From contig JAUCBJ010005016.1 in NCBI GenBank assembly GCA_032718475.1, forward strand, positions 159,187 to 223,186: a DNA stretch of 64,000 bases. The letters run 5' to 3'. Position numbers and translations under genes: made by a program. Within the stretch, counting starts at the first letter, position 1, and every line of letters begins with the position of its first letter. Shown here in pieces: positions 19,701 to 55,956 of the stretch. The DNA comes from Nemertoderma westbladi (lineage: Eukaryota; Animalia; Xenacoelomorpha). The notes below the pieces were generated by a model, which made no database searches, was not told the DNA's origin, and saw only the letters and a list, made by a program, of their open reading frames with translations.

Positions 19701-20660
19701 CTAATGGAGCGGGAGTATATGACGTAGTTTGTAGAAGAGACCACCGGTCCTAATGGAGCGGGAGTATATGACGTAGTTTGTAGAAGAGACCACTGGTCCT
19801 AATGGAGCGGGAGTATATGACGCAGTTTGTAGAAGAGACCACCGGTCCTAATGGAGCGGGAGTATATGACGTAGTTTGTAGAAGAGACCACCGGTCCTAG
19901 TGGAGCGGGAGTATATGATGTAGTTTGTAGAAGAGACCACTGGTCCTAATGGAGCGGGAGTATATGACGTAGTTTGTAGAAGAGACCACCGGTCCTAATG
20001 GAGCGGGAGTATATGACGTAGTTTGTAGAAGAGACCACCGGTCCTAATGGAGCAGGAGTATATGGCGTAGTTTGTAGAAGGGACCACTGGTCCTAATGGA
20101 GCAGGAGTATATGACGTAGTTTGTAGAAGAGACCACCAGTCCTAGTGGAGCGGGAGTATATGACGTAGTTTGTAGAAGGGACCACCGGTCGTAATGGAGC
20201 GGGGGTATATGACGTAGTTTGTTGAAGAGACCACCAGTCCTAATGGAGCAAGGGTATATGATGTAGTTTGTAGAAGAGACCACCAGTCCTAGTGGAGCGG
20301 GAGTATATTACGTAGTTTGTAGAAGAGACCACTGGTCCTAATGGAGCGGGAGTATATGGCGTAGTTTGTAGAAGAGACCACCAGACCTAATGGAGTGGGA
20401 GTATATGACGTAGTTTGTAGAAGAGACCACCAGTCCTAGTGGAGCGGGAGTATATGCCGTAGTTTGTAGAAGAGACAACCGGTCCTAATGGAGCGGGAGC
20501 ATATGACGTAGTTTGTAGAAGAGACCACCGGTCCTAATGGAGCGGGAGTATATGGCGTAGTTTGTAGAAGGGACCACTGGTCCTAATGGAGCGGGAGTAT
20601 ATGACGTAGTTTGTAGAAGAGACCACCGGTCCTAATGGAGCGGGAGTATATGACGTAGTT
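7702..20660. repeat. 49-bp satellite array, right block (~264 monomers) with higher-order repeats
   Basis: Same monomer. Diagnostic variants recur at 294 bp (6-mer), 1568 bp (32-mer) and 2450 bp (50-mer) spacings. Confidence 0.98.
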
Positions 20661-21904
20661 TGTAAAAGCTTTTGTGGGATAACTGATTCGTTTGCCTTGC
20701 TAACCAGTTCCCCCCAGGCGCTGGAATACTCTAAAAAAGGGATCTATAACTCGAATAGCGCAAGCTACCGGCTGATTGGCTGATTCGCTGTGCGAAGGGA
20801 TCTGGGCTACGTTTGATTGTCCAACCAGCTTGGGAAAGTTGCCCCACAGCCCTGCTTTCTGTATCTGCCAATAGGATTTGAGTTGATTTTGATTTCGACC
20901 TATCACAGATCTACTGAACTGAATTTTCCTATCTGTATGCTCTTTCTCTGTGTTGGGTGGAAGCCTTTGTAAATAAGGTTATTCTTATCAGTTTTCAGTG
21001 TTGTTGGTCTTTCTGTCCTGAGCCAGGAGAGAACGGCTTGTAAATATTTTGTGCTTTTCTGTTTTAGTCTAACACTAGTAGGCTTAATTATAAGGACATA
21101 TATCCGTTATCAAACTAATGAACACACTGAATCACTGTGCATAACAATCCAATTCAAACTGATGTTTGGTCTTTCTTGCATACTTTTATATTACTATTTT
21201 TACTACTATTTTTATCTCTACTATTATTACTACTTTTATACTGCTATTTACTGTCAGTTCTTCATAATATGGTTGATGAATTATTATATTTGGAATAACG
21301 ATAAATAACCCCGAAACCCAATATTCTTGATATACCGAAGGTAAGAGAGAAAGGTTACATATAACGATTGTGACTTATGTTAAAGTGGTTTGAAGTGAAT
21401 CTAATGTTATTTGATAGACCCTACATGAGTCGGTCCGTGTTCCTTTTATATATAACTAAAATCAGTGAAGATCGGCAGATCAGTGTGCAGTATTGTGCAG
21501 CATTGTGTATGAGTGAGACTGATAACGAAGCATTTCCTAAAGAATGCGCCATATATGTGAATTATAACTAAGCCATATCGTTGTGAGTAGTTTAAGTCAT
21601 AACTCTGTTTATATAGATAGAGCGCCACGTCCTAAAGGAACCTGTTAATATTTCCCGAAGGTGAATAATATTGTCAGAGATTATATAATACTGTCAGTCG
21701 AATAATACATTAGGCTTACATAGCAATAAGATTAAGCCGTCGAACCCAATCTCCCGGGTATATCCAGCGGGTGAATGATCGCGCACAGATTGGTTTCGAC
21801 CAGTGTAGTGAATTAAATACTTGTCATAGGCTAAAAGTGATTTATTATCTAGAAGACATCCTAATTTGGCGGGTTAAACTGCCAAAGGTCTGAAAGCGCG
21901 AACA
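20661..21904 (+). repeat. Element 1 5' LTR (1244 bp)
   Basis: TG...CA ends. The ~21235-21904 part is near-identical to 36103-36770, while the upstream part is strongly divergent from the 3' LTR. Hairpin TTTGGCG...TGCCAAA near the 3' end. Confidence 0.93.
21096..21110 (+). promoter_or_regulatory. Candidate self-primer segment in the LTR (ACATATATCCGTTAT)
   Basis: Exact reverse complement of 21905-21919. Also present in the 3' LTR at 36034-36048, although the sequence just downstream differs between the LTRs. Confidence 0.8.
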
Positions 21905-21919
21905 ATAACGGATATATGT
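21905..21919 (+). promoter_or_regulatory. Non-tRNA primer-binding site of element 1 (ATAACGGATATATGT)
   Basis: Abuts the LTR 3' end, has no TGG, and is complementary to 21096-21110. Confidence 0.8.
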
Positions 21920-21984
21920 TTCTTTATTGCAGTAAGCAATAAAGTTGAAAGTACCGGTCAACCGGTAAACCTGAACGGTACATC

Positions 21985-22100
21985 TGTAGGTCAGTAGGCC
22001 CAACTGCCAGAACCGGTACTGCCGTAGGTCCGTAGGTCCAACTGCCAGAACCGGTACTTCTGTAGGTCCGTAGGCCTAACTGTCCTAACCGGTACTTCCC
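21985..22100. repeat. Short tandem repeat (~35-39 bp, 3 copies) in the element 1 leader
   Basis: Recurrent GTAGGTC..GTAGG(C/T)CCAACTGCCAGAACCGGTACT units. Confidence 0.75.
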
Positions 22101-22275
22101 GTATAAGTACATTAGTATTATTCGATTTGATTGTTGCATACCGGTAGGCTGTTTAAGAGATTAGGGACTGTACACCCCTTGTTTCTTTTGGAGCTTACTT
22201 ATTTCTGTCAATTTTATTTTATTTGTAGGCCAGTATTGAACAGAAGGCATGTAAGCCTGATCAGATTGTACAGAC

Positions 22276-22850
22276 AATTTGTAGGCTGAGCTGTTGTCTG
22301 ATTGCTGTTAGGTCTGAACGGATTGCAGTGTGTGTAGATCACCTGTCAGATAAAGAACGGTTAGGAAGTAGGGGCAGCAAATGCTGTAAGGTAAACCCCC
22401 AACTAAAGAATAAGTCGTACTACTGGGTTAGAACGCATACTACCTAATCATTTCGGAGTCTGCATGTCCTGTAGTTTATTTAGGCTTGAGAGTAGTCTGC
22501 CATCGTTGAGTCTGTACTTTGTTTGTGTAAGTCTGTACGGGTAGCGTATAATATTTATTTAGATAATTTGTAGGCTGGATAGTTGTCTGGCTGTTGTTAG
22601 GTCTGAACGGATTGTAGTGTGTGTAGAGCCCTTGTCCGATAAAGAACGGTTAGGAAGTAGGGGCAGCCAATGCTGTAAGGTAAACCCCCAATTAAAGAAT
22701 AAGTCGTACTACTGGGTTAGAACGCATACTACCTAATCATTTCGGAGTCTGCATATACCGTAGTTTGTTTAGGCTTGATAGTAGTCTGTCGGTATTTGGT
22801 CTGCATTTTGTTTGAGTATTTGTACGCGTAGCGTAATATTTATTATTCAG
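22276..22850. repeat. ~289-bp tandem duplication in the element 1 5' leader
   Basis: Two copies (~22276-22563 and ~22565-22850) with a nearly identical core TAAAGAACGGTTAGGAAGTAGGGGCAGC...TTTCGGAGTCTGCAT. Confidence 0.9.
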
Positions 22851-24166
22851 AGTTTATGCGATTATTCGCAACATTCATTCCCCAAGTTTGTTCCTACAAT
22901 AATTGTGTTTGTTATACATACCGCTATAGTTAAATTAACCCCGGTACTACACGGGCTGCTTGGCGTAGGTAAAGACTGGTGATTTTGTGCACCGGTCACT
23001 CCAGGAGATGCCGTGGTTCTTTTAACTGTTCAAGTATATTTAACTACTGATTATATGTTGTACAAGTACTCGTACCTAATTTAGGGTTTAGTGTACAGTG
23101 CTTTCCGAAAGTAATTAGTGTAGGCATTATATTTGTGTTGTAAAGTGGTTGATAGGCACGTTCGATTAGCTCTATTAACTTCTAGGTGGGAACACTCCGT
23201 GATACATAACGTAGTACCTATAGCGATACGGCTATAGGTCGTCAGGCGGTGGTATTTTCCTATCTGGACAACGCAGTGTATTTACTACTACGTATTATTT
23301 TCAAATACCGCAGTACCCTGTCCGTTGTAATAACCAGATTTCTAACCCTTTGTTAGGCTGGTTTGTAGACTTCTTGTAAAATTACCCTAAAAAATTCGTA
23401 TTTTGTGTTTTTTGTAAATTTTTGTGTTTATTTAGAGATTGTAATCTCACCCGAATTGTACGTAATTTGTAGTATTAAGTAACTTAGGTAAATTAGTATT
23501 ATTTGTTTTAGTGTCCTATAAGTAACACTTCACTGAAAGCGCACCGCTTTGTGTAGTGATTACTCCCTAGAAATAATAACATTTATTTCAAACATTGACA
23601 AAACCCATTAAAACGGGTATATATATATTATAAATCAAATCTAACGATTTATAAATAGTAGGCCTACCATACAACCATTAGGTCTCAATATCAGTTGGAT
23701 TACTGCTCAAATAACGGTAATAAAGTAAGTAAAGTAACCAAGTAACCCAAAAAATTCAGAAATTCAATTATTTAAAATAATTGATATACCGGTATTTACG
23801 ATAGGCCTATTATCTTCATTTCTATAAATTTAGGCTGAAACTATACCGGTACTTTATAATTAATTCTAGTCCAGAATTATAATTATATATACTACAAAAC
23901 TGTAAGCTGTATACCGGTATTCCCGATAGGCCTATTATATATTTATATATATTTGTGCTAAAATTATACCGGTATTCTGTGATAAACCTAGTCTGTAATA
24001 ATAGTTATATATACTATAAGCATACCGGTATTCTAATATATTATATATATCATGCTACACTGAGTAGCAGTACCGGTAATTAATTACTAGGCTATCAGTT
24101 AACACTGAGCTACTAGACTTGCTCAGACTGTAATACAGCAGTAGACATTCAACTGTACACATAAAC

Positions 24167-27100
24167 ATGTCTGATACTAAGCAGAACCTGTCAGACAGTT
24201 TATTAGATGTAACTATCTGCGACTCAGATAGAGGCATAGAACCGTCTAGTCGTAAGTTCAGTTCACCTCCCACTGTGAGGAAGGTCATCCCTCCAGTAGT
24301 AATAAAAGAACCTAGGCTGGTCCAACATCGTAGGTCTATCATAGGCACTCGAGCTCAGGTCAAGCGGGACCAAGAAGCAGCGGAACAGCAACAACCCGCG
24401 AGCCAAGAACTTACTTCTCAACGGCCCAACAGCTCTAGTAGTGAGGATACTGTAGAACTGACACCAGAACGCGGAGCAAAGATGATGGATGCGGTTTATT
24501 CGGATCCCCTTCTCATCCTTCCTGCAGCCGTACTCACTAGGTTATTGATCGCTGTGGAAGAACACCAGATCGATTGGGCGAGAAGCCAGCGTTCAACTAG
24601 AGATAGTTATGCTGGATACACAAGGGAAGAACTGAAGTCCATGGTCGAGTCGCAATGGAACTTCCCCGGACCCGGACTCCTGTTTGATTTATCAGAAGCT
24701 GCCTGGGAAGACATACACCGGATGGGAGTAGCCAAGGAAACCATCGATCCAGCTGTGTGGAAGAGGTCCGCAGCCGGATACGCACAGGGATTCTTCAGCT
24801 CTATGGAGCGAGTAAAAGGACAACTGTTTCAACAACCACAAGGACCTCAAGAGCAGGGACAACTGCTTTATCAAGTTAGAGAAAGAATTCTACGAATCAG
24901 GCTAATATTATCGGCCTTTGAGGAGGCTTCTAAACGAAGGCAAGACACGTCGTTGCAAGTTGCCGTAAAGACCTGGTTTCAAAGGGTGAGTCTCCAGGTT
25001 CAAGGAACAGCTCAGTGGAAAGCTCAGCTGGAGGAGCGCTCAACCCATGGAGAATCTACAGACGCTACTTTTTCCCAAGTGGAAAGTGAAGCGACGGCAG
25101 AGAAACCGCATAAGAGGGATGCCATTGACATCTATCTGTCAGACTATCAACGTTTTTTAGGTGATGACGAGTTGAGGAGAAGGTTAGAGGGACTTAGCCC
25201 TAATAGTGAAGGAACCAAGCTTGTGCTGGATGCCATCGATGTGGAAATGAGGGCTGCGAATCAGGCCAAATTTGATGAACAACTCCGCCTGACACGAGTC
25301 CAAGAAGAACAAGTAAAGAAAAAACGCATAGAAGACAGAAAGAAAGCAGCAGTGGTAGCTGCAGAAGCAGAAAGAAAAGCGGCAGCGGCAGAGGCAGCGG
25401 CAGAGGCAAAAGCAGCCGAAGCTGAAAGAAAAGCGGCAGCGGCAGCGGCAAAGGCAGCGGCAGAGGCAAAAGCGGCAGAAGCAGAAAGAAAGGCGGCAAT
25501 GGCAGCGGCCGAAGCAGAAAGAAAGGCGGCAATGGCAGCGGCCGAAGCGGAAAGAAAAGCGGCAGAGGCAGTGGCAGAAGCAGAACGGAGAGCGGCTGAA
25601 GAAACCATCCAATTAGAATTGGAAAACATTCAGGAGAATCAAGACTGCATAAATAAACAGTTAACAGCTAGTAATATGCAGATGATGAATCGATCTACTC
25701 CCAAAAGACAGGGATATACATCATCTGAGGAAGGCGATACCACCGATACTGAAGGCAAAGGAAATAGATCTCGTCTAAGCAGACGTAAAAGAACATTCCA
25801 CCGTCAGAAATTGCCTGATTTGCCTCCAGCTGTTAGAAGGCAACTAAATAACACCAACTTAGGTAGTACAGAGCCCACAGACCAAATAATTAAAATAGAA
25901 AGACTCCCTACTATAGTAGATGAGCCTGAAATAATTAGGCCTGTTCTTGAAATCACCCCTTCGGTGATAGATACACCTGTGCTCCCTGAAACTACCTCTA
26001 AATTCCCTCTGCATAGCACTAAGCTACCTGTGCCCCGTAGAACTGCCCAGGAGACAGTTCAGGTCCTGGACCCCGAGCGAAATATTCCTGATTTGTCGCC
26101 CGTTGTCCCTCGTCCGCTCGCTACAACGTTGGCGACTCCCGCTTCGGCGGTCGAATGGGTGGACGAGAGACGGCGGGGGATGGATCTCCTGCTCGGGCAG
26201 ATGCAGGAGACGGTTCAGCAATTCAAGTGCACAGTAAGGGAAAGTAGGCTTGAGTTGCAAGAAGTGCAGCAAAGTATCGCGCTAGAACGCGATAAATTAG
26301 TAAATACACAGAGGGGTATACCACCACCCCCTGTAACAATGTGTCAACCTGTTAGGTCTGAAGTATCTCATGCGCAAGGTGTGGAGCCTACACGCATATA
26401 TACTGCTAGCGAAGTAGAAACTCCTATAGTGAACCCTATTAAGGGTAATTATAGACCTGTTGATAATGACATTCCCTATAGAACTGATCATAATCCGAGA
26501 AATTTATATACCGATAACTCGATATTAAATAACACGATGGCCCAAGAAAGTTTTACGCGTCAAATGGCTAGAACCGAAGCCCGGCAAGCGGTAAAGGTGG
26601 GAGAGATCGTCAAGTTCAATGGAGATGAGATGAAATGGTTACCTTTTAATGAATATTACAAAGATAACATACAGAACTCTGTACTATCTAATGGAGAGAA
26701 ACTTAGATTCCTCATCGAGTGCTTGGAAGGATCTCCCAAGTTAATGGCGTTAAAGTTTATTGGACATCCAGACGGATTAAGACAAGTTTGGGATACACTA
26801 AACATCAGGTATGGTAATAGGAATAACATAGCTGGGTATTTGTATGCAAAGTTGGTAGCGCCCCGAAAGTTTATTAGCAACGGGATTATAGAGTTTTCCG
26901 ATGAAATTCAGGAGATCTGCAGACAATTAGATTGGCTAGGTAAGTCTCATGAGTATCAGAGTGCTATGGTTATTAGAGCAGTGGCCTCTACTTTACCGAA
27001 GGGTGGAGTAGGTACACGCTGGGACAAGAAAGTGTTATACATGATGGAACAACAACAACGAGACCCTACCATGACTGATCTCATGACATTCTTGGATGGC

Positions 27101-30100
27101 GAAGTGAAATTACAGCTCATAAAGCAGTCCAGAGAGAAGACATCGGAAAACAAGGTAAGTGAGAAACCCGTCTCCAGAAGAAAGGTAACACCAGTGTGTT
27201 ATACCGACGACGGCGAAAGCCAAGCTTCCCAAGGGGAGGATAGCGGGAAAGACACTGAAAGATCTTATTATGTCAATAAAAAACCTAACGAACAGGGAAG
27301 TAAATTTAAGTCTCGATCCAATGACCAGAGAGAACAGGTAAGAAAAACTCCTCCTACGTCTCCCAAGAGAATTCAGGTGAGAAAGCCCGAAGAAAGAACG
27401 AGAGTGCAAAATGTTACCCAAATTAAGGTAAGTAACATCAAACCGAAATGTGCGCTATGCGACGGGACCCACCGTTTGAATATGTGTGATGAATTCCTGA
27501 AGAAATCATTATCGGAGAGACGAGAAGTCATGTGGGATAAGCGGTTATGTTATAATTGCCTCAGACAAGGACACCAACGGCGTACCTGTTTCTCTGACAT
27601 AAGGTGTGCAAAGTGTGGTGCGAAACATCATATCTTGTTGCACGCTGAATTCGAGCGAAATAGTCCGAATCAGGTAAGTGATTCCGAGCTACATGTCCAA
27701 TTCAGTGATGTGAACGACACTGATCAATCTGAGATGGAAGGATTCTATACAGACGAGTTCTCCGACGAAAACGAATCCTGTTACATGATAAATACCGCAG
27801 TGTATCGAGCACTCACATATGAAAAGGATACAGACAGCGACCTCACTCTAACTACTTCTGATCGACAACCATCTTGGAAAGCGCCATCTTCCAATGTAGG
27901 GATCCGAGAGTTTCCTGTGGTGCAGTTAAGGGTTCACGGACCTAAACGGAGTTATGTAGTGAACGCCCTCCTTGACTCCGGCAGCACAGGAACATTCATT
28001 GATAAAGAACTAGCCGAAGACATATTCGCTGGACAACCCAAGTTCCGAACTAAGCTAAACATGTCAGGAATTATGCAAGTTTGGAAATCTACAGTAACAG
28101 CGGATTATTATGTAGGAGCGTTGTCCACCCCCCAGGACGAACTAGGAGAACATAGCATAAGGTCAGTGAAAATGGTGGCTATAAAGAACTTCGCTACTAC
28201 TCAAGCAGACCTTTATAATTGGGACGAGGATGAGAGCATCCAACATCTTAAGATACCTCGATTCCAGACTGATTATCCTGGAGTGCAAATACTCATCGGC
28301 CAAAACGCGCATGAGGCGCTCGAGACATTGGAGAAACGGCCTGCTCAACCGCAGCCACTACAGACCTATGCGGTAAGAACTAGAGTAGGTTGGTACTTTA
28401 CTGGCCCTTCCCGTAGAACACTCAGAGAAAGACTACCGCAAGAGCGCGTCTGCCAGGTGAGTGAATGGGAAGATGATACTAGTGAGGGAGACGATTTAAC
28501 TGAGGGAACCCCATACTCCTCAGATAACGACGACGTTCACCAGCTTTTTGATGAGGAGAATACCATCGATCTCCTTAAGGAAAACGAGGCTTGGCAAAAC
28601 CAAGTGAACTTATGTCAACTTCTTTATCCATCTGAACGAGAAGCTTATAACGACGAGTTAAATGACGTCATTGAGCGTTGTAATGCCAAGACTCGAGATG
28701 AACATGCCGTACGATTCTTTACGCAAGAGGCAGTAGAGCCCAATTCCTACGATAAAGCCTTATCGGTGGAAGAGGAAAGGGCCAAGCAGATCCAAGAAAC
28801 AACTACACGTTTCCTCAAAGATCAAGGTAGGTATGAAGTCGGTCTACCTTTCCGCAAGAGAGAACCGAAGTTCATCAATAACAGACCCTTGGCGGAAAAG
28901 AGAATCGCGCAACTCCATCGACGCCTTACGGCTAATTCTTCAGCTAAAGCAATGTATCAAACACAGCTGGAGAAATTTATTAGTAAGGGATACGCGGAGA
29001 GAGTACCGGAAGAAACACCTGTGACTGAAAGAACGTATTACTTAACTCACCATTACGTTCCTAAACCCGGTAAACCACATGAAGTGAGAGTAGTGTTTGA
29101 TGGCTCCGCTCTTTACATGGGTCAATCCCTTAACTCTGAATTGTTACCCGGACCCAACTTACTTCAATCTTTGTTGGGAATTCTTTTAAGATTGAGACAA
29201 TATTCGATTGCTTTCGCCTCCGATATAGAAGGCATGTTCTTACAAGTCAAGGTGCTAGATAGGGATCGAGATAGTCTACGATTTCTGTGGTGGCCCGAAG
29301 GAGACCTCAACCAGAAACCGGTGGAGTACTGGATGACCATCCAGGCCTTTGGGATAATCTCAAGCCCTTCCAACGCCTGTTCTGTAGTGCGTACCACTGC
29401 AGAGGACAACCGAGAGGCCTTCTCTAAGGAAGTGATCGACAACATCAAGCGAGACATATACATGGACGATAATCTGAAGTCCCTTCCATCAGTTGAGGAA
29501 GCCATTGAGGTCGCTAAAGGAACGGTAGAGTGCTTAAAAAGAGGTGGGTTTCGATTAACGAAATTCACCAGCAACTCCCGTGAGTTTCTGGAGTCGATCC
29601 CTGCGGAAGATCGAGGAGCGAAAGATCTCGATTTGATCAAAGATGATCTGCCAGAAACCAAGACACTCGGCTTGAAATGGGACACAGAGCGAGATATCCT
29701 GTTTTTCCAACTAAAACAGCGAGATAATCCAGTTCGAACCAAACGGATTTGTTTAAGTATACTGAGCACTTATTTCGATCCATTGGGATTTATTAGCCCA
29801 GTTATATTGATTGCTCGGAGTTTGGTACAACAAATGTGGCTTGAAAACCACTCATGGGATGATCCACTTAAGGGAGAATTATTAAAGAAGTGGATGAAAT
29901 GGGAAGATTCTCTGCCAGCTATCGAGGATTTTATAATTTCCCGTTCATATTTTGGTCATGTTCTCCCTACGTATTCCTATCAACTCCATGTGTTTGGAGA
30001 CGCCAGCGATATGGGAATAGGTATAGTAGCCTACCTAAGAGTGGAAACTCCGGATGGAATCAAAGTCGCCTTGGTTACTTCTAAGGCATTAATCAACAAC

Positions 30101-32344
30101 AAGTTGAAAGTTCCTCGAGCGGAGTTAAAGGCGGCTCTATACGCTACAGCCATCGGCCGGAATGTAACAGAACAGATTGACTATCCATTAGAGAAAACGG
30201 TCTATTGGACCGACGCTTTACTCGTGTTAGAGTATATAACCAATGAAGTCTGTCAGTTCAGCGTCTTCGTTACCAACAGAGTAGCCATCATACTTAGTCG
30301 CACGACGATGGATCAATGGAGACATTGCCCCGGAACGATTAATCCAGCAGACATCGCTTCCAGGGGAGCGACTCCAAAGGAATTGGTAAATACTCCCGAA
30401 TGGTTAGGAGGACCTGACTTTCTCTACAGAGAAGAAGAAGAATGGCCTCCCCATCTCACAACAGCAGAGATCAGACAGGCCAAGGGAGCGGAGAAAGTTA
30501 AACCCAAAACTCGAGCGAGTAAATCGAAGTTGTTTAAACCTGCGGTTGATCTATCTGTATTATTTACTTCCGGAGAGGATGCTTTGGATCAGAAACCCAC
30601 CGCCACGGATAAAGAAGTCTTGGAAATCCGTGACAAGGATTGGAAATCTGGAATACCAGATATCTCACAAGGACTCTCACCTCTCTTGCAGAGAGCGATA
30701 CGTCACTACAGTTCCTGGAATCGGCTCTGTAAAGCTGTCACCTATTTGAAACGATGTTTTCATCATCGTTACTCAGGAACAAAGACCAATAGTGATGATG
30801 CTCCATCAACATCTGCACGAGTCCATGTTGTTAAAGATCTTCCTAAATACAAGATATCCGACAGGTTTCTAAAGGAGAAGATCAGTTACCAGGAGCATGA
30901 TGAAACCAACAAACAGATGCTGAGACTTCTACAATGCTATGAGGATTCCGATAAGTATTTCCTGTTGTTAAGAAATCCGCAGATGCGCTTAAGGGATCGC
31001 TTCTCTAGTACCATGATAGATGGGTTAATACGTGTTGGAGGCAGGCTTACCAACGCCCCATTATCCTTTGACACTAAGTTTCCCATACTCATTAGAAATC
31101 TTGACATACAAATCAAGATGATTGTAGATGTTCATAGCAAACTGTACCATGCTGGTAGAGAACGAGTTCTGAGCGAAATTCGAACTCGCTACTATTTTTA
31201 TAAACCCCGTAGGGCTCTGAACCAAGTTCTTAGGAACTGCATACCCTGTAGGAAAGCATTCAGTAGGCCTTTAACACAGCGAGAGGCAGAATTACCTAGG
31301 GAAAGAGTAAGCTTCTATGAACCACCCTTTACTAATACCGGTGTGGATTTATTTGGCCCTATTGAAGTATATCGTGCCCGGACTATAGTCAAGAGATGGT
31401 GTGTCATCTTCGTTTGTATGACTTGTAGAGCTATCCATCTCGATATGGTAAACGATCTATCCACCAACAGCTTCGTGTTGAGTTTACGACGACAGATCGC
31501 TCGCTTCGGAACCAGTAACACGATGAGATCGGATAAGGGAACGAACTTCATTGGCGCCAACAACGAAATTCAAGCTTACGTAAAGGACTGGAACAAAAGA
31601 CAGGTGGACGATCAGCTAAAGATAACAGCGTCTAGCTGGACCTTCAACGCCGCCGACGCCCCTTGGTGGGGAGGAAGTTGGGAGAGATTGATTAGGAGCG
31701 TGAAGACTGCGTTCCACTTTATTGTGCCTTGTCGCGCTTATCTCACCGACGAACTATTGCGGACGTTAATGGAGGAAATCGCCGCCTATCTCAACGAAAG
31801 ACCGCTTATGCCAGTCTCTTCAAATCCTGATTCCCTGGAAGCGCTAACACCCGCGCACTTTCTACTGAAGAAACCCGTAGCCATGCTCCCACGATCGGAG
31901 ATCACAGACGGAGACGAGTACTGCCGTCGAACCTGGCAACTTATGCAGTTGCTATCCCGTCGTTTCGCTGACCATTTCGAGAAACATTACCTGCCCACTC
32001 TACAACTTCGAACTAAGTGGTTTGCGCAGCAAGAAAACGTCAGCGCTGGAGACATGGTGCTTATTGTGGACCCCGATCTCCCACGTAAGCGATGGCAAAC
32101 AGGTCGTATCATCGAGACTCATATCTCGAGCGATGGTTTGGTGCGATCAGTAGAACTCGTCGTCATGCGGCGTAATTTTAAGAAACCAGGGATAGTCTTT
32201 GAGACTCAACAGCTCAATCGCCCAGTGGGTCGTTTATGTTTACTGGAAAGAGACAGAGAGCTCTCCGGAAACTATGGAAGACAAGAAACTCTTCCCACGA
32301 CCACTTCCCTAATCCAACCGACACCTAGGGACTCCCCAACTTAA
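24167..32344 (+). CDS. BEL/Pao Gag-Pol polyprotein (2725 aa, uninterrupted)
   Basis: Gag KFNGDEMKWLPF (DUF1759-like); three Zn knuckles (CALCDGTHRLNMC, CYNCLRQGHQRRTC, CAKCGAKHHILLH); protease ALLDSGS; RT RVVFDGS, SDIEGMFLQV and YMDD (29459-29470); Pao RNase H LHVFGDAS, PRAELKAA and NPADIASRG; integrase HHCC plus GVDLFGP, SDKGTNF and GGSWERLI. Confidence 0.97.
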   Translation: MSDTKQNLSDSLLDVTICDSDRGIEPSSRKFSSPPTVRKVIPPVVIKEPRLVQHRRSIIGTRAQVKRDQEAAEQQQPASQELTSQRPNSSSSEDTVELTPERGAKMMDAVYSDPLLILPAAVLTRLLIAVEEHQIDWARSQRSTRDSYAGYTREELKSMVESQWNFPGPGLLFDLSEAAWEDIHRMGVAKETIDPAVWKRSAAGYAQGFFSSMERVKGQLFQQPQGPQEQGQLLYQVRERILRIRLILSAFEEASKRRQDTSLQVAVKTWFQRVSLQVQGTAQWKAQLEERSTHGESTDATFSQVESEATAEKPHKRDAIDIYLSDYQRFLGDDELRRRLEGLSPNSEGTKLVLDAIDVEMRAANQAKFDEQLRLTRVQEEQVKKKRIEDRKKAAVVAAEAERKAAAAEAAAEAKAAEAERKAAAAAAKAAAEAKAAEAERKAAMAAAEAERKAAMAAAEAERKAAEAVAEAERRAAEETIQLELENIQENQDCINKQLTASNMQMMNRSTPKRQGYTSSEEGDTTDTEGKGNRSRLSRRKRTFHRQKLPDLPPAVRRQLNNTNLGSTEPTDQIIKIERLPTIVDEPEIIRPVLEITPSVIDTPVLPETTSKFPLHSTKLPVPRRTAQETVQVLDPERNIPDLSPVVPRPLATTLATPASAVEWVDERRRGMDLLLGQMQETVQQFKCTVRESRLELQEVQQSIALERDKLVNTQRGIPPPPVTMCQPVRSEVSHAQGVEPTRIYTASEVETPIVNPIKGNYRPVDNDIPYRTDHNPRNLYTDNSILNNTMAQESFTRQMARTEARQAVKVGEIVKFNGDEMKWLPFNEYYKDNIQNSVLSNGEKLRFLIECLEGSPKLMALKFIGHPDGLRQVWDTLNIRYGNRNNIAGYLYAKLVAPRKFISNGIIEFSDEIQEICRQLDWLGKSHEYQSAMVIRAVASTLPKGGVGTRWDKKVLYMMEQQQRDPTMTDLMTFLDGEVKLQLIKQSREKTSENKVSEKPVSRRKVTPVCYTDDGESQASQGEDSGKDTERSYYVNKKPNEQGSKFKSRSNDQREQVRKTPPTSPKRIQVRKPEERTRVQNVTQIKVSNIKPKCALCDGTHRLNMCDEFLKKSLSERREVMWDKRLCYNCLRQGHQRRTCFSDIRCAKCGAKHHILLHAEFERNSPNQVSDSELHVQFSDVNDTDQSEMEGFYTDEFSDENESCYMINTAVYRALTYEKDTDSDLTLTTSDRQPSWKAPSSNVGIREFPVVQLRVHGPKRSYVVNALLDSGSTGTFIDKELAEDIFAGQPKFRTKLNMSGIMQVWKSTVTADYYVGALSTPQDELGEHSIRSVKMVAIKNFATTQADLYNWDEDESIQHLKIPRFQTDYPGVQILIGQNAHEALETLEKRPAQPQPLQTYAVRTRVGWYFTGPSRRTLRERLPQERVCQVSEWEDDTSEGDDLTEGTPYSSDNDDVHQLFDEENTIDLLKENEAWQNQVNLCQLLYPSEREAYNDELNDVIERCNAKTRDEHAVRFFTQEAVEPNSYDKALSVEEERAKQIQETTTRFLKDQGRYEVGLPFRKREPKFINNRPLAEKRIAQLHRRLTANSSAKAMYQTQLEKFISKGYAERVPEETPVTERTYYLTHHYVPKPGKPHEVRVVFDGSALYMGQSLNSELLPGPNLLQSLLGILLRLRQYSIAFASDIEGMFLQVKVLDRDRDSLRFLWWPEGDLNQKPVEYWMTIQAFGIISSPSNACSVVRTTAEDNREAFSKEVIDNIKRDIYMDDNLKSLPSVEEAIEVAKGTVECLKRGGFRLTKFTSNSREFLESIPAEDRGAKDLDLIKDDLPETKTLGLKWDTERDILFFQLKQRDNPVRTKRICLSILSTYFDPLGFISPVILIARSLVQQMWLENHSWDDPLKGELLKKWMKWEDSLPAIEDFIISRSYFGHVLPTYSYQLHVFGDASDMGIGIVAYLRVETPDGIKVALVTSKALINNKLKVPRAELKAALYATAIGRNVTEQIDYPLEKTVYWTDALLVLEYITNEVCQFSVFVTNRVAIILSRTTMDQWRHCPGTINPADIASRGATPKELVNTPEWLGGPDFLYREEEEWPPHLTTAEIRQAKGAEKVKPKTRASKSKLFKPAVDLSVLFTSGEDALDQKPTATDKEVLEIRDKDWKSGIPDISQGLSPLLQRAIRHYSSWNRLCKAVTYLKRCFHHRYSGTKTNSDDAPSTSARVHVVKDLPKYKISDRFLKEKISYQEHDETNKQMLRLLQCYEDSDKYFLLLRNPQMRLRDRFSSTMIDGLIRVGGRLTNAPLSFDTKFPILIRNLDIQIKMIVDVHSKLYHAGRERVLSEIRTRYYFYKPRRALNQVLRNCIPCRKAFSRPLTQREAELPRERVSFYEPPFTNTGVDLFGPIEVYRARTIVKRWCVIFVCMTCRAIHLDMVNDLSTNSFVLSLRRQIARFGTSNTMRSDKGTNFIGANNEIQAYVKDWNKRQVDDQLKITASSWTFNAADAPWWGGSWERLIRSVKTAFHFIVPCRAYLTDELLRTLMEEIAAYLNERPLMPVSSNPDSLEALTPAHFLLKKPVAMLPRSEITDGDEYCRRTWQLMQLLSRRFADHFEKHYLPTLQLRTKWFAQQENVSAGDMVLIVDPDLPRKRWQTGRIIETHISSDGLVRSVELVVMRRNFKKPGIVFETQQLNRPVGRLCLLERDRELSGNYGRQETLPTTTSLIQPTPRDSPT

Positions 32345-32887
32345 TATCGTTCGGAGTGGGCGTGTGACTCTATTATTTTATATTATTTTATTATTTTTAT
32401 ATTTATGTATGTATTACTATGTAATTTTATTATAATCGTTTTATTTAATTTAGTAGAATATTATTTAGCGATTATTTAGTAGAATAGTGCAATATATTCG
32501 TGTTTATTACGTACGTAATTACTTATATTATATTTAGTGTGACGTTGAGAAACAAGTGTTTTTATCTTTCCTTACTGTCCGTATTATACTATAAATACGT
32601 AACTACAGTAAGATGAAACGTCTGTACTTATTAAAGTACAATAAAGCCACTACTATATTCAAGTATTATTGGTAGGCAGAGTATTAGGAATGCAAAGTTC
32701 AGATCCTCGTGTCTCGGCTAAACCAAGCTCTGGGTAGACCTTGGAAACGACTTGCCTCTTCACACTGACATTGCTTCGTGCGATATTGCTCTCATACCGT
32801 ATATTAAATAATACATATAGTAGCGTGATGTCCCTTTAACAGTAGCGTATAACGCAAAATAAATCTGTTAAACCCTTTGACCATCTG

Positions 32888-33180
32888 TAATTCTAGTCGA
32901 TTAAGATATCGCGGCACCCACCGATATACTTGAAAGACAAATTTTAGAATCAATGGTTAACGTCCCCAGACAAGTTCTGGAATAAATCGGTGCCCATCTC
33001 AAATATTAATTATTTAATATTTGCAAATCTAATAAATCAAATCTGTAAAATTCAGATCCTTCAACAATTCTAGTCAATTAAGATATCGTAGCATTTACCG
33101 ATATTCTTAAAAAGACAATTTTCATAGAATTAAGGATCTTGTGTCCCCAGACATGTTCTAGACTCAAAATATGTCCATTT
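32888..33180. repeat. Degenerate ~178-bp-period duplication between pol and ORF2
   Basis: AATTCTAGTC(G/A)ATTAAGATATCG...AAAGACAA...GTCCCCAGACA occurs at ~32889 and ~33067. Confidence 0.7.
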
Positions 33181-33988
33181 AATTATCAAATAATAAAATT
33201 TCAGGGAATAAATTTAAATTCATGCCTTTTAATGAGTTTAATAAATTGCCATTTTTACGCAATTTATAACATTCCCAAAATTCCATTAATTAATAGATCA
33301 AGGGAGCGGAGATTTGTCTTATTATGAGTATGAGTGTGCGAAAGTCTCCCAAACATGGTCAATAGCCGATAAAATTCATAAAGTCATGTATCAAACAGGA
33401 CATTGACTATTAAAGAATTACTATTAAATAACATCCCAGATCTGTATGCATGGGAATTACGCTAATTCTACCGCTAGCTTTGCATAATGTCACCATGGCA
33501 ACAACCACGCTAGAATTAGAATTGAGTTAAAAGAACAATAGAAAGCTTGTCCCATTGAATAGCATAGGGAATAAATAGCGCACTGCTAGTATCCAAGGAT
33601 ACATAATAATACAGTGACATTCTGGAAGGCATTGACTAACGGACAAATGGCCCGAATGTGCGTAGTTGTGACCAGTTGTGTGGTATTTGTGAGTTTATAG
33701 GTGAATGTTACTGCTAAAGTGTGTTTACAGTAGCTAGTCGCAATTGTGAAAGTAACCTAACTCTCCAAGGAAAACCTGAAGTACATCTAAGCCTTTGGGA
33801 CGGACAGTGGAGTGACTTGTGCCGGTTGTCATTGTCGTTGTGCGGCTACGTCGTTGGCGAAAGTACAGCGGCGACAACACATCGGCGCTGAGGATCTCGC
33901 ACTGTCCGGGGGCTGATTGGGGTAGGCAGCGACGCCCGCTCGCCTAAATATAAACTCATTATAATATGGATAAATTTATATAGCAGAT

Positions 33989-35119
33989 ATGATTGAGTTG
34001 ATAGAAGATGATCTTGGTATCAGGGAGCGATATACTCTACCTTTACAAGCGTTTGTTGATAGCTTGATACACGGCGACGCTGGTCCAACTGCTGCGGAGG
34101 ACGATGATCGTTATATCGAACCGCCAATGTCCCAAGAGCAGCTCACGCGTGAGTTGGACTATAAGAAATTCACCGCTCGCTATACGCATCGTAATGGTAC
34201 GTATGTGGACTTCTTAACTACTGGTCATCCTATCGATTTACACGATACGGACAATGTCGACACCAAAAGGGAAATGGTACGATTGAAATATCCTACCCAG
34301 CGGAGGCGGAACGATAAACCGAGAATGGAACACGAGAATTCTATTCGAAACAGACTCGAAAGAGAAGACGTTGAGGAGCCGGATAAACGCAGCGACTTCA
34401 ACGATTATCTGGAATTCCTGATAGAAACATATCTCAATATTGCCAGTCAACAAAATCTAGAAACTCGATATCCTCAAGGTATACATCATGACCGCATGGT
34501 AGAACTCAAACGGCTCGATTCCCCTATGATGTATCTTACCGCCGATCGACCGCTACCTGTTGTACCGAATAGCTTCGAACGGATGGAGGAATATTGTAAG
34601 CTGGAGAAAGATCACTCGCGTTTCCCCTACAAGACGTACGTTTTTGGGTATTATTGCGATGAATGCCCTAGACCCAACCAACAAACGGAAAGACATAAAC
34701 ATCCGCGGAGACGTTGCTTTAAACACGGTTTTACTCGCTATACTTACGGGAGTTTCGAGCGAAACTTGTTCAATGTATCACCTACGCTCGTTCGACTCAG
34801 ACGATCCTTAAATAAACCAATGATCAGAGTTTCGGAATACTCGATCAGAGCTCCTCATTCCCTAGTGAGGCCTCAGACTCTTGATCCTATTAGTATGACG
34901 GATCCTCCCGAGCTGTACTCACTGCTCAAAGATCTAGTGTTACCTGAACGATTAGTCGGTGGCACCCCAGTTGTGGGTTTCTTAGATATTAGCCCATCCT
35001 ACCTAGCCGGATTGGGACGCGGACATTTAATATCGCCGTTTAACCCTTACCATCGTCCCGGCTTGACACGATATAACCTGTCACCAGAGTGGCGGAGAAC
35101 GTTGTACCAAACCAGTTAA
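33989..35119 (+). CDS. Extra ORF2 of element 1 (376 aa), unknown function, in the env position
   Basis: Long ATG-initiated ORF between pol and the PPT. Hydrophilic, with no evident signal peptide or TM helix. Cys/His cluster YYCDEC...HKH...CFKH. AG acceptor candidates (TAGCAG) lie just before the ATG. Confidence 0.75.
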   Translation: MIELIEDDLGIRERYTLPLQAFVDSLIHGDAGPTAAEDDDRYIEPPMSQEQLTRELDYKKFTARYTHRNGTYVDFLTTGHPIDLHDTDNVDTKREMVRLKYPTQRRRNDKPRMEHENSIRNRLEREDVEEPDKRSDFNDYLEFLIETYLNIASQQNLETRYPQGIHHDRMVELKRLDSPMMYLTADRPLPVVPNSFERMEEYCKLEKDHSRFPYKTYVFGYYCDECPRPNQQTERHKHPRRRCFKHGFTRYTYGSFERNLFNVSPTLVRLRRSLNKPMIRVSEYSIRAPHSLVRPQTLDPISMTDPPELYSLLKDLVLPERLVGGTPVVGFLDISPSYLAGLGRGHLISPFNPYHRPGLTRYNLSPEWRRTLYQTS

Positions 35120-35581
35120 ACGCTATTCTACAAAGATCAGAAAGGAAACCTACGTTTGTTCAGATAAACGTAAGTTGTAACAGCAAGTCCAAGCGATAAA
35201 CGAATTGTCTTTATCTCAGTTCGATTGTGAAATCCAGAATCTCTAAGAAGATATCGCACTTAGACAACCCCATTCTCTGCGAGAGTTTTTGGATGAACGT
35301 ATCCAGCTACGAGCGGAGGAAAATCAGCTCGAGGAGAAGCATATCGAAACGGCGGATACCCCGACCATAATCCTACACCTTCTGATGCAATCATATTGCA
35401 CCCTTCACCCAGGATTTATAGCCCTCCTAGTAAAGTGGCTCCCCCCAAAGAGAAAAGGACTCTTGCTAGCCTCAAAAAACTGCGTAAACGCCGCCTGCGT
35501 AAGAAAGACTAACTGTTTAGAGTATTTTTATATTTTAGAAACTGTGATTTGTTATATTTTATAGACTTAAATCCCATTTTC

Positions 35582-35590
35582 TGGGAGCGG
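35582..35590 (+). promoter_or_regulatory. Polypurine tract of element 1
   Basis: TGGGAGCGG immediately precedes the 3' LTR start TGTAAAAG. Confidence 0.7.
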
Positions 35591-36770
35591 TGTAAAAGCT
35601 TTTGCGTCATTAACCGGTTATTTTCCCTTAAAGTACTCTGTAGTTGGTTTGCCAGGCATAAAAAGGCCGTGTCCTTGCTGTACTGGTGTTTTAGAGGACA
35701 TAAAAGTCATTTCTTATGTATTTGTACTGTATTCGTACTTTAGAGGACATAATCCACAATCTCGTGACGCGATAAGCTAGATACTCTTGAAAACAGTGTC
35801 GCTACCATGACGATGGCTAACAGCTGATATTGCCATGTCGACGTTTCTTTGTTTCTTTGTTCTCTCGTTGTTCGGTTGACCAATCAGAGCGTTTGTTGTC
35901 TCTGTGTTGGAGGTGTATACAGAGGCTCAGTAGTTCAGTGTTATGTTTTTTGCCCAGAGCCAAGGAAGAACGGCTTTGGAGTATTTTTGTGTTTTTCTGC
36001 TTTAGCCTTACACTAGTAGGCTTAATTATAAGGACATATATCCGTTATCATAACATAACATACCATACCTAATCAAACAACCTGTGCATACTTTTATATT
36101 GTTATACTGCTATTTACTGTCAGTTCTTCATAATATGGTTGATGAATTATTATATTTGGAATAACGATAAATAACCCCGAAAACCCAATATTCTTGATAT
36201 ACCGAAGGTAAGAGAGAAAGGTTACATATAACGATTGTGACTTATGTTAAAGTGGTTTGAAGTGAATCTAATGTTATTTGATAGACCCTACATGATTCGG
36301 TCCGTGTTCCTTTTATATGTGACTAAAATCAGTGAAGATCGGCAGATCAGTGTGCAGTATTGTGCAGCATTGTGTATGAGTGAGACTGATAACGAAGCAT
36401 TTCCTAAAGAATGCGCCATATATGTGAATTGTAACTAAGCCATATCGTTGTGAGTAGTTTAAGTCATAACTCTGTTTATATAGATAGAGCGCCACGTCCT
36501 AAAGGAACTGTTAATATTCCCCGAAGGTGAATAATATTGTCAGAGATTATATAATACTGTCAGTCGAATAATACATTAGGCTTACATAGCAATACGATTA
36601 AGCCGTCGAACCCAATCTCCCGGGTATATCCAGCGGGTGAATGATCGCGCACCGATTGGTTTCGACTAGTGTAGTGAATCAAATACTTGTCAGAGGCTAA
36701 AAGTGATTTATTATCTAGAAGACATCCTAATTTGGCGGGTTAAACTGCCAAAGGTCTGAAAGCGCGAACA
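35591..36770 (+). repeat. Element 1 3' LTR (1180 bp)
   Basis: Same termini as the 5' LTR. CCAAT at ~35880 and Inr-like TCAGT at ~35927 and ~35935. Confidence 0.93.
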
Positions 36771-37460: not shown

Positions 37461-38766
37461 ATAATATCGTGTCGGTCAGTGTCAGTCTGTGTTGTATATC
37501 GCTTATTGCGCTCCTTAATGTATGTTTATTATATATTGTACTGTCCCTTTTACTTCCGACTTTAACTCAATTCTTATGATAAATAAATGCCACTGCAACT
37601 GGTTTGCGCTCTTGAGTATATAATATAATATATAGATGTTGCGCTTAACAAATACGCCATGTCGAAATATGTATATTGGCGCTTTTGCGACCTGTTTATA
37701 TAAGATGAGGGCGTTCTGCGGGATATAATGGCGTTTGGTAGGCATGTCATCTTAACGCCATAATGGCGATAATGCTACTTAAGACCAAAAAATTCATCAT
37801 AAGTGGCGTTTGATTATCAGTTTATATTCAAGCGTTCCTAGCACCAATTATTAACATATTATTAATCATCCTATCATCTCTTGTATTTCATGCAACGAAA
37901 AAAGCATAATGTTCCTGGGGAACGATTTATAATTCTTTTTGACGGCACCCTGGCTAGCAATAAAAAATAAACCATTTTTAATATAAACAATTAAAATGAG
38001 CATAATATTAATTAAAGCTATAAACTCATGGGGTGACTTGACTATTAATGGCATTTATTGTGGTATATAGGCCTAAGTAAAAACACGGGACCTACAGTAA
38101 ATTATCAGCAATTTACGATTTATGTTCGCATAAGAAGCCTAAGAAGTTCGCTAGGTTCACCAAAGTCAGGTTTCTTAGGATCTAATTTAGACTTTTTATC
38201 CTGCAGGCTGCATCGCATGTACCAGTTATACCAAACAGCCAATATACAAAAATTAAATACACAAGCGTGATTGGCGCAAGTTTGTGGTGCTGCTTCCCAG
38301 TGGATAGTTACTGCCCACAACTCTATTCGTTTCGTAGGCCGTTCCTTCCCCCTTTGAGGATTCACTCTTATTGTCATCTCTTGGGCTCCCTCTTGAGAAT
38401 GCCTTCATTTGTGATGCGAAACAGGACGAGCGCAACCAGTCTAGTGATGGAGACGAGTTTATTCACGAAATTGGCAAATTGTTGACCTATTTATTGTTGG
38501 CACACTGTAAACATTTTACAACTAAAGTGGCGTTTCAATTCAAATTCACATATAAAACAAATTAATAATAAGCAGAATAATTCTGCGGGTAATATTTAGG
38601 AATGTCCAGTCCAGTGTACTGTAATTTGTTTCGAAGGCCACATTATTTACATAAACTGAACCATAACGTACATGGACCTTCAAAATCATAGGCAAAACCA
38701 TACCGGTATCACCTGCACTGTGACCTTAAGAGATCTAAAGACTTACCCGAATCATCATAACCATAT

Positions 38767-39326
38767 CGTCCCTTTCATTTTGAAACCACCTATATGCCAT
38801 TTTTGCCGAAATGGTGATTTCTGCATTTCTTTATGTTAAAATGTATTCTGAATCCGATTAACACACTTAGAAGGCCATGCTCCCACGTATAACTGACTTT
38901 TCAAAACCACCTATATGCCAGTTTTGCATAGACCGCATTATAAAGAAATTTACGAAACGTTGATTTAAAATTGGAAACAACGAATCAGGAGCTAGAATTG
39001 TTGTTTATTATGATAGAGGGAGATTTGTTTTATATTTTTAAAACTTAATAATCGAATTTGTCTTAAGGGTTTTAATACTTTTTGAGTAATCATTGTGAAA
39101 AATGAAATATTTTTTTTGAAACAACCTATATCCCTATACATAGTTTCCTATCTAATATGTTACATAATTCCAATACCATAACTGTTTTTGTTTAAAATCG
39201 TTACATTTAATGGATTCAAAAGTAAATAAGACCAAAATCCTGGAATATTACTTTCAAACAAAATTAGAATCGAAAATGCCGTTTTACAGGAAATTAGATT
39301 TAGGTTGTTTGAAAATGAAAGGGACG
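38767..39326. mobile_element. 560-bp MITE with ~26-bp TIRs and ATAT TSD (Sola1-like)
   Basis: CGTCCCTTTCATTTTGAAACCACCTA ... TAGGTTGTTTGAAAATGAAAGGGACG with ATAT on both sides. Empty paralogous sites CATATCTTGAAA occur at ~40023 and ~42878. The family call is inferred from the 4-bp AWWT TSD. Confidence 0.85.
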
Positions 39327-40650
39327 ATATCTTGAAACAGAACCCTAACATGAAACCATAACACCAAAAAACGCAAAACTTAACCATACCCTTACTCTGG
39401 GCGTACTGAAGCCATTTTACATTTTTAATAACCACATTGGCAAATTGTTAACATATTTAGCTTCTGGCGCATGCCGAATATTTTATAACAAAATTGGCGT
39501 TTCATTACATGTTCGTAAATATTACAAATTGAGACAAGTTTTTTGATGTTCGTGTGCCAGAATATACTTAGTAGAAATGCAATGAAGAGCTCATATTATA
39601 TAATAATATAATATACATTATATATAATTATACAATTTATGAAGAGCTGAAGAAATCATATTGGCTATCGACAATTTTTGTCGAATTAAAACCATTTTAC
39701 GTAGATACTGGCGTTATGTAGTCTTTTATTCACGAAATTGGCATATTTATAGTTGGCACATTGTAAACATTTTACATCTAAATTGGCGTTTCAATTCAAA
39801 TTCCCATATAAAACAAATTGATAAGACATGTTATTTTTTATATATCAGAAACCAAAAAATTTACTGTCAGGAATGTCAAGCGTACATTAATTTGTTTGGA
39901 AAGCCACTGAACCAATAGCCAAACCTTAATCTGAACCATAATATGGACCATAACAAAACCATACCGGTATCATTACCTGCACTGTGACCTTAAGAGATCT
40001 AAAGAATTACCCGAATCATAATCATATCTTGAAACAGAACCCTTACATGAAACCATAACAACGATAACGCAAAACTGAACCACACTTACTCTGGGCGTAT
40101 TAAAACCATTTTATTCTTAAAATGTTACTTTTTCGCTCGAATTTAGTCCAACATCGGGAGAAAAAGTTTCACTTTTTTTCCCTAGGGAAAAAAGTAACCC
40201 ATAGGAAAAAAGTAAATTAAAATATTTTTGGCGGAATTTCTTAAATTTTATTACATATATTGAAACAGCATCGACGTAGAAAAGGTTTGCAAGTAATTTG
40301 AGCAAAATCCATTCACTCACTCACTCAAAAGTTATTGCCACTTTAGTGTCTGCGCGGCGTATCTCCAAAACGGAACTCAATATCCAATATGGGTTTAGGT
40401 AGTTAAGCGGCTCCCTAGTTACGTAATAAATTTTCGAGAATACTAAATTATTTAACATGGAGTATGGCAACATCAGGAGTTGAAGAGTACAATAATTTGA
40501 ATCGCAGTAACTATGGAAGCAATATAGTAAAATACTGCAGTTCAATTTATTTTGTAACACTACGGTAGGCTACTAATACTGTACATACATAGAATATTGC
40601 TATGTTTTATTAAAGAATTTAGCAACAAAAAAGTACCAATTTAAGAATAA

Positions 40651-40797: not shown

Positions 40798-40798
40798 A

Positions 40799-41190: not shown

Positions 41191-41197
41191 AACTACA

Positions 41198-46163: not shown

Positions 46164-46670
46164 TGTGACGACTGAGGCCAAGTCGTGGGTTTTTTTGGTA
46201 ACTGTAATATGACGCAGCGTCATCGCGTATTGTTACCAAGCTATATGCAGGCCTGAAACAGGGACACCGCAGATAGCTTCAACTTTGATAATTGAAAACA
46301 TAAAGTATAAAAGAAGCTTTCATGTTTATTCACAGTATATCTATAACAATACAAATTGATTCTTGGCAGCGTATAAAACAGTGAGCAATAACTAATCTTC
46401 ACAACTAATAATTATGTGGCCTAAAGCTAAAATGGACCCTCCACCTAATATATATATATTGTCAACCTAATCTACGTGAGTGATAATAGAGGTGAATTCA
46501 GTGCATTGCAAGGCCAATCAGCTATTGGCTAGTTTATTATCTGGGATTCCCTCGACTGATTGGGCTTAAGCAATGCTTTGAATGTTTCCTCTTGGTGAAA
46601 GCAATGTAGGCCTATAATAAATGATTGCAGATTGGAATCGGGGTTTGATGGGCATGCTACAGCCGTGACA
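46164..46670 (-). repeat. Element 2 3' LTR (507 bp)
   Basis: Only two substitutions seen relative to 55450-55956. Confidence 0.96.
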
Positions 46671-55439: not shown

Positions 55440-55449
55440 TGTTTTATAC
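55440..55449 (-). promoter_or_regulatory. Non-tRNA primer-binding site of element 2 (GTATAAAACA on -)
   Basis: Abuts the 5' LTR end, has no TGG, and is complementary to the LTR segment 55657-55666. Confidence 0.7.
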
Positions 55450-55956
55450 TGTGACGACTGAGGCCAAGTCGTGGGTTTTTTTGGTAACTGTAATATGACG
55501 CAGCGTCATCGCGTATTGTTACCAAGCTATATGCAGGCCTGAAACAGGGACACCGCAGATAGCTTCAACTTTGATAATAGAAAACATAAAGTATAAAAGA
55601 AGCTTTCATGTTTATTCACAGTATATCTATAACAATACAAATTGATTCTTGGCAGCGTATAAAACAGTGAGCAATAACTAATCTTCACAACTAATAATTA
55701 TGTGGCCTAAAGCTAAAATGGACCCTCCACCTAATATATATACATTGTCAACCTAATCTACGTGAGTGATAATAGAGGTGAATTCAGTGCATTGCAAGGC
55801 CAATCAGCTATTGGCTAGTTTATTATCTGGGATTCCCTCGACTGATTGGGCTTAAGCAATGCTTTGAATGTTTCCTCTTGGTGAAAGCAATGTAGGCCTA
55901 TAATAAATGATTGCAGATTGGAATCGGGGTTTGATGGGCATGCTACAGCCGTGACA
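55450..55956 (-). repeat. Element 2 5' LTR (507 bp)
   Basis: TG...CA ends. TATA-like run at ~55734-55742, CCAAT boxes, and hairpin ACGACT-GAGGCCA-AGTCGT next to the U5 end. Confidence 0.96.
55657..55666 (-). promoter_or_regulatory. Candidate self-primer segment in the element 2 LTR (TGTTTTATAC on -)
   Basis: Reverse complement of the PBS-position 10-mer, overlapped at its 5' end on - by Inr-like CTCACT. Also present in the other LTR at 46371-46380. Confidence 0.68.

Follow-up and report, generated by a model that had tools for sequence, protein, structure and literature searches.

A BEL/Pao Element of Nemertoderma westbladi With a Primer-Binding Site Complementary to Its Own LTR and a Probable Element-Derived Primer

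Two BEL/Pao Elements and Their Surroundings

The window, that is, the whole 64-kb stretch of Nemertoderma westbladi DNA that was analysed, contains two LTR retrotransposons, element 1 on the forward strand and element 2 on the reverse strand (Table 1). Based on its long ORF, which encodes DUF1759, Peptidase_A17, Integrase_H2C2 and DUF5641 in that order, and on its TG...CA LTRs and purine-rich tract, element 1 belongs to the BEL/Pao superfamily. The motifs of the protease, RT, RNase H and integrase are in place, including the RNase H acidic motifs, and PF05380 was found in all of the at least 120 homologues among the matches listed. At an identity of ∼40%, named homologues occur in echinoderms, a sea anemone, a mussel, amphioxus, a hemichordate, a nemertean and fish. 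The element spans positions 20661–36770 (16.1 kb), outside the ICTV genome range of 4.2–10 kb. The extra ORF after pol matched nothing in Pfam or in the Atlas. The Gag starts with a long Ala/Glu/Lys repeat region, and the 2.2-kb leader (21905–24166) carries 38-bp and 289-bp tandem repeats. A ∼20-kb array of a 49-bp satellite (1–20668) abuts the 5′ LTR and shares the first bases of this LTR. Elsewhere in the window, a cluster of nested dispersed repeats of 100–470 bp (38225–45422), a 53-bp tandem array of 42 copies that are 95% alike (56794–59024) and a perfect 228-bp inverted repeat with a 9-nt spacer (61110–61574) were observed.

Table 1. Coordinates of the features of elements 1 and 2 in the window.
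Feature	Position	Strand	Description
Element 1, 5′ LTR	20661..21904	+	1244 nt, TG...CA; from the LTR pair alignment
Element 1, identical island in both LTR variants	21072..21112	+	41 nt; ends 2 nt past the primer segment; TATA-like hexamer at 21089
Element 1, putative self-primer segment	21096..21110	+	21094–21110 including two G-U pairs
Element 1, hypervariable stretch 3′ of the predicted cut site	21113..21235	+	36% LTR identity; depth collapse and joints in family contigs
Element 1, PBS position	21905..21919	+	Complementary to 21096–21110, without TGG
Element 1, hairpin directly after the PBS	21922..21944	+	9 bp; acceptor-like AG (21931–21932) in the loop
Element 1, gag-pol ORF	24134..32344	+	2736 aa stop to stop: DUF1759, CCHC knuckle, protease, RT (YMDD), RNase H, integrase, DUF5641
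Element 1, extra ORF after pol	33974..35119	+	381 aa, no family
Element 1, purine-rich tract before the 3′ LTR	35575..35590	+	
Element 1, 3′ LTR	35591..36770	+	1180 nt, different U3; primer segment intact at 36034–36048
Element 2, 3′ LTR	46164..46670	-	2 differences from the 5′ LTR; 5-bp target duplication
Element 2, PBS position	55440..55449	-	10 nt complementary to own LTR, without TGG
Element 2, 5′ LTR	55450..55956	-	507 nt; primer segment 55666–55657 = LTR nt 291–300

The two LTRs of element 1 differ strongly from one stretch to the next: the identity is 54% over 20661–20993, 79% over 20994–21070 and 100% over 21072–21112, drops to 36% over the hypervariable stretch and reaches 98% over 21236–21904. 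The U3 and U5 halves appear to have been exchanged as modules. No target-site duplication was found at the element 1 flanks. Near-identical LTRs together with a target-site duplication, the mark of a fresh insertion, were thus seen in element 2 and not in element 1, which concerns the history of the copy and not its superfamily membership. We infer that the element 1 copy arose by recombination between two subfamilies or as a chimera of the assembly, and not by a fresh insertion. A first-pass annotation of this DNA had described the element as intact; this holds for the 2736-codon ORF, which is open and has its catalytic motifs, but not for the LTRs, whose halves have diverged and which lack a target-site duplication.

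With such an origin of the copy, the identical island within the LTRs, which stops 2 nt beyond the last paired base, becomes informative. Its first 24 nt are not accounted for by the pairing with the PBS described below. In the family contigs, the depth peaked in the bin 21056–21112, which exceeded both neighbouring bins in all four runs analysed (X1, X3, X4 and X5). The depth, summed over contigs and not equivalent to copy number, was 307,561 versus 38,328 and 1,270 in the neighbouring bins for X1, and 148,620 versus 29,007 and 822 for X3; X4 and X5 behaved likewise. The hypervariable stretch consists of short repeats and begins directly after the predicted cut site.

Complementarity Between the Primer-Binding Site and the LTR of Element 1

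The sequence 21905–21919 is the exact reverse complement of 21096–21110, and 21905 is the base directly 3′ of the 5′ LTR. When the PBS was searched for as at least 10 nt of complementarity within 0–5 nt of the LTR end, 15 nt were obtained at offset 0. Among the 13,655 internal start positions used as an empirical control, the PBS alone reached 15 nt of complementarity to the LTR, the next-best being five unrelated sites with 11–12 nt, and, apart from the intact copy of the LTR string in the 3′ LTR (36034–36048), neither the PBS string nor the LTR string occurs elsewhere in the window. Two G-U pairs lengthen the helix to 17 bp (21094–21110 with 21905–21921). The energy of this duplex was −21.3 kcal/mol versus −12.2 ± 1.8 kcal/mol for shuffled sequences, and none of 300 shuffles was as low. 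Moreover, the helix core was predicted with a pair probability of 0.8–1.0 in all six leader folds (842–1011 nt). The polarity is that of a primer, with 21110 opposite 21905, and 794 nt lie between the paired segments. The nearest TGG downstream of the 5′ LTR is 284 nt away. The first-pass annotation had reported the exact 15-nt match, its extension by two G-U pairs, the primer polarity, a PBS without TGG, an intact primer segment in the 3′ LTR and a spacing of ∼790 nt, and all of these were borne out.

Within the family of element 1, the PBS side varies. Position 21905 is T in 54% (X1) and 34% (X3) of the family contig depth, 21909 is A in 50% in both X1 and X3, and single-base losses at 21916/21917 occur in some family contigs. 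On the LTR side, no change at 21096–21110 was present among the 45 of 180 variant rows listed for the family contigs. Compensatory changes, which the first-pass annotation had proposed to look for, were therefore not seen within this family among those 45 rows, whereas two-sided changes were found between sister families of relatives, as given below.

Complementarity in Element 2 and in Related Families

Element 2 is also a BEL/Pao element; its pol is spread over three frames, and its RT shares 41% identity with that of element 1. The first 99 nt after its LTR contain no TGG. A complementarity of 10 nt to its own LTR starts at offset 0, a length found at 5 of the 8,739 internal positions, the PBS itself among them. 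A TATA-like box (LTR nt 215) precedes the primer segment, and an AATAAA (LTR nt 341) follows it. The duplex is weak: its energy was reached by 43 of 300 shuffles, and the helix was missing from the minimum-energy fold when the longest of the leaders was folded (pair probability ∼0.35). The PBS also matches the LTR of an unrelated family, L038, over 10 nt.

Relatives were taken as the best 80 of 517 loci (54 clusters) from a profile scan of metagenome contigs; the loci may come from few host species. No relatives were found in viral contigs. A long-range direct repeat was present in 40 of the 80 loci, and the 3′ end of the LTR was fixed by the LTR pair, independently of the pairing with the PBS, in 15 loci (13 clusters). 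The 56 loci left unscored comprised 40 that had no LTR pair and 16 that had no usable LTR end. A match was defined as at least 10 nt at an offset of 0–5 nt, either contiguous or across a GT-AG intron of 45–450 nt with a pyrimidine tract. The offset window had been widened from 0–3 to 0–5 nt after L038 and L056 were seen, and one donor pattern was added after L035; at the stricter offset of 0–3 nt, 11 of the 15 loci scored.

In 11 of the 13 pair-fixed families, the PBS pairs with the LTR of the same family over 10–15 nt, each time in different letters, and none of 200 shuffles was as good in any of them. The pairing starts 0–4 nt from the LTR end in the scored families. Nine of these families pair only across a splice junction, with introns of 67–164 nt (L001/L004, L005, L007, L017, L034, L035, L038, L050/L052 and L055), and two have a contiguous match (L021 and L056). 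The two misses, L029 and L069, scored 4 nt and carry a TGG 5 and 2 nt after the LTR, respectively; they are sisters in the tree (100/97), and the L069 site is a 12-mer assigned to tRNA-Met (PMC5445492). L035 is ambiguous, having a TGG as well as a 10-nt junction match. The first-pass annotation had staked its self-priming reading on relatives sharing the complementarity, which proved to be present in 11 of 13 families and absent from exactly the two with a TGG-type site; its recurrence in element 2 and in these families, each time in other letters, supports that reading. Nine more loci, in which the LTR end was chosen by eye, all matched (10–15 nt) and were not counted as independent.

When 18 families were compared in a matrix, 16 cognate pairs reached 10 nt versus 3 of 306 non-cognate pairs, none of which reached 12 nt. 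Two-sided changes distinguish the sister families L056/L060 within the helix and L005/L055 at its distal end; in L007, the helix is merely shorter. An A plus a pyrimidine ends 15 of 16 predicted primers, and C comes next in 10 of 16, a pattern that hints at a shared cut-site preference. The order TATA box, primer segment, poly(A) signal is found in element 2, L001 and L055. The loop was 51–251 nt long in the other scored cases, so that the 794 nt of element 1 are three times the next longest. When a splice-junction match was sought in elements 1 and 2, the best were 3 nt and 0, respectively, and their primers are therefore contiguous. The tree places elements 1 and 2 together, on long branches (97/97). 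The primer types are scattered over this tree, contiguous primers requiring at least four changes and spliced ones at least six (starred branches), with no direction, be it intron loss or gain, readable from the midpoint rooting.

Three further observations were made among the relatives. L024 shows, by eye, an 11-nt PBS match across a splice junction; its LTR end is uncertain and it was left unscored. L027 and L028 lie on one contig in which multi-kb units of the element follow each other in tandem at 100% identity, which is probably an artefact of the assembly. The LTRs of L038 end in TA instead of CA, with a 5-bp target duplication.

Proposed Priming Mechanism

Judging from the sequence, RNA derived from the element itself, and not a tRNA, probably primes minus-strand synthesis in a Tf1-like manner (probability about 0.75–0.79), and we think it fairly probable that the primer would act in cis from the 5′ LTR of element 1. 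For this, the RNA would have to start upstream of 21096. The candidate start is a conserved motif near 20994–21002 which we take to be initiator-like; the LTR similarity climbs from 54 to 79% at this motif, ∼100 nt upstream of the primer segment, and a start there would give a primer of ∼110 nt. The 5′ leader would then fold back so that 21094–21110 pairs with 21905–21921, and a cut 3′ of 21110, for which the RNase H of the element is the probable enzyme, as in Tf1, would free a 3′-OH from which the RT could copy U5 and R into strong-stop DNA. In most relatives, the primer would be present only once the LTR intron is spliced, elements 1 and 2 being intron-free versions. Because reverse transcription would drop an intron that had been spliced out of the 3′ LTR copy, contiguous primers could arise from spliced ones.

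The main doubt about priming in cis comes from the TATA-like hexamer at 21089, which lies 7 nt upstream of the primer segment and is the only consensus one before the segment in both LTRs. If it is used, the start would fall near 21119, ∼9 nt past the segment.

More broadly, the data tilt slightly towards a scenario in which a large branch of BEL/Pao elements in marine animals dropped tRNA priming in favour of a primer cut from their own LTR RNA, mostly after splicing by the host, the two lineages in the window having lost the intron and priming across loops of up to 800 nt.

Splice-like signals were also seen in the LTRs of element 1. A strong donor-like site is present in both LTRs (21341–21342), and an mRNA spliced from it to 21931–21932, 12 nt past the PBS, would lack both U5 and the PBS. 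Upstream of the primer segment, both LTRs likewise carry acceptor-like pyrimidine tracts (21048–21067 and 20983–20998), unaccompanied by a conserved donor; they are possibly the remnant of an intron or a trans-splice site.

Alternative Explanations

The doubt raised by the TATA-like box bears on whether the element's RNA has to act in cis. The primer could instead be supplied by the 3′ LTR copy (36034–36048), by a short or spliced LTR transcript or by packaged solo-LTR RNA, and no 794-nt loop would then be needed. A start driven by the box at 21089 would leave the segment out of the 5′ transcript, the segment is intact in the 3′ LTR, and the relatives must splice one LTR copy while leaving the intron of the second in place, a difficulty that two RNA pools would remove. 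We nevertheless consider this source unlikely, given that in element 2, L001 and L055 the segment is preceded by a TATA signal and followed by a poly(A) signal, so that the 5′ transcript should contain it, and that the LTR similarity of element 1 rises at the initiator-like motif upstream. A slightly less probable reading is that the helix is structural or regulatory, acting as a switch in packaging, translation or splicing, with priming left to something else, for example to a protein, to a DNA end or to a host RNA at another site. It would fit the variation at two PBS positions, including the terminal pair, in half of the family, the hairpin and acceptor-like site directly after the PBS, and fungal GalEa, in which a hairpin that is not a tRNA site takes this place and has no mechanism assigned to it (PMC5445492). 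It fits poorly with a pairing that always lies 0–4 nt from the LTR end, has primer polarity and shares a terminal dinucleotide, and that is mutually exclusive with a TGG site in 13 families (L035 being ambiguous); moreover, the U5 end needs a primer at that place to be defined.

Half-tRNA priming exists in Ty1/copia lineages (PMC6317226), and a fragment of a host tRNA or another host RNA could by coincidence match the PBS and be the real primer. This is very improbable in view of 16 families with unrelated PBS sequences, each of which fits its own LTR while non-cognate pairs rarely do. The only Rfam match over 20600–24200 was at chance level (E 0.92), and no tRNA genes were detected in the window by ARAGORN. 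The least credible explanation is that the complementarity arose by chance or by a one-off inverted duplication; the sequence is AT-rich and the element 1 copy recombinant or chimeric, but the shuffle, internal-position and non-cognate controls largely refute it, and a DNA event cannot make matches that exist only across splice junctions. The recurrence of the pairing with different letters rules out both chance and a single host RNA as explanations, and priming by the element's own RNA is the reading that we carry forward.

If this reading is true, BEL/Pao would be the third LTR superfamily with self-priming; proof of this mode exists for Tf1 alone, and predictions for some Ty3/gypsy and plant Ty1/copia lines. 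It would explain the lack of an annotatable PBS in many marine BEL/Pao elements, and such elements would escape control by tRNA fragments. In its splice-junction form, self-priming would link host splicing directly to primer supply, the splicing of one LTR copy serving as a licence for replication.

Comparison With Known Systems

No report of self-priming or of splice-made primers in BEL/Pao elements was found in the open literature, a search that covered neither subscription papers, Repbase reports and GyDB pages nor supplements. The accessible texts of PMC3601003, PMC13524379, PMC3286476, PMC5445492 and PMC6934838 do not propose self-priming for BEL/Pao, and terms for PBS, tRNA or priming are absent from the accessible main text of the BEL/Pao surveys PMC554778, PMC3118150, PMC6238403, PMC8556966 and PMC2774666. 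With the Belpaoviridae (Tas, Achilles), element 1 shares the Gag-PR-RT-RH-IN order and the Pao-specific Pfam domains. The ICTV profile gives an 18-nt PBS for tRNA-Arg or tRNA-Gly and a genome of 4.2–10 kb, and calls the replication poorly understood (PMC8742986); for Achilles, a tRNA-Tyr PBS is given (PMC4580426). Element 1, in contrast, has no tRNA-type PBS and exceeds this size.

In fungal GalEa Copia elements, a tRNA PBS is also lacking and a conserved pairing, a hairpin, lies at the PBS position; its partner is downstream in the leader, with no complement in the LTR found according to the accessible text of PMC5445492, whereas the partner in element 1 is in the LTR. For the plant Ty1/copia elements TAR, Houba and Osr-1, self-priming was predicted by the same rule (at least 10 nt, 0–5 nt after the LTR). 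They differ in their Copia domain order and plant hosts, and the accessible text mentions no splice junction (PMC6317226).

A close likeness is to Tf1/Tf2 of Schizosaccharomyces pombe, Tj1, Tf1/sushi and Tcn1, in which the PBS by the 5′ LTR pairs with LTR sequence of the same element, and not with a tRNA, over ∼10–15 bp (PMC7175516, PMC4600332). Self-priming has been demonstrated for Tf1 (PMC4600332, PMC7175516), whose RNA supplies the primer with its first 11 nt, RNase H cutting after base 11 (PMC7175516), and it has been proposed for Tj1, Tcn1, Tf1/sushi, plant TAR, Houba and Osr-1 (PMC4600332, PMC7175516, PMC6317226). The Tf1 group belongs to another superfamily, Ty3/gypsy, and the segment of element 1 is probably internal whereas that of Tf1 is formed by the first 11 nt. 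No chromodomain was found in the element 1 proteins, which carry Pao domains instead, so that element 1 is not a Tf1/sushi member. Further differences are the 794-nt loop of element 1 and the splice that most relatives appear to need; the cleavage is shown for Tf1 and predicted here. Element 1 is a BEL/Pao element that departs from the description of its family and that, by its sequence, would work like the self-priming Tf1.
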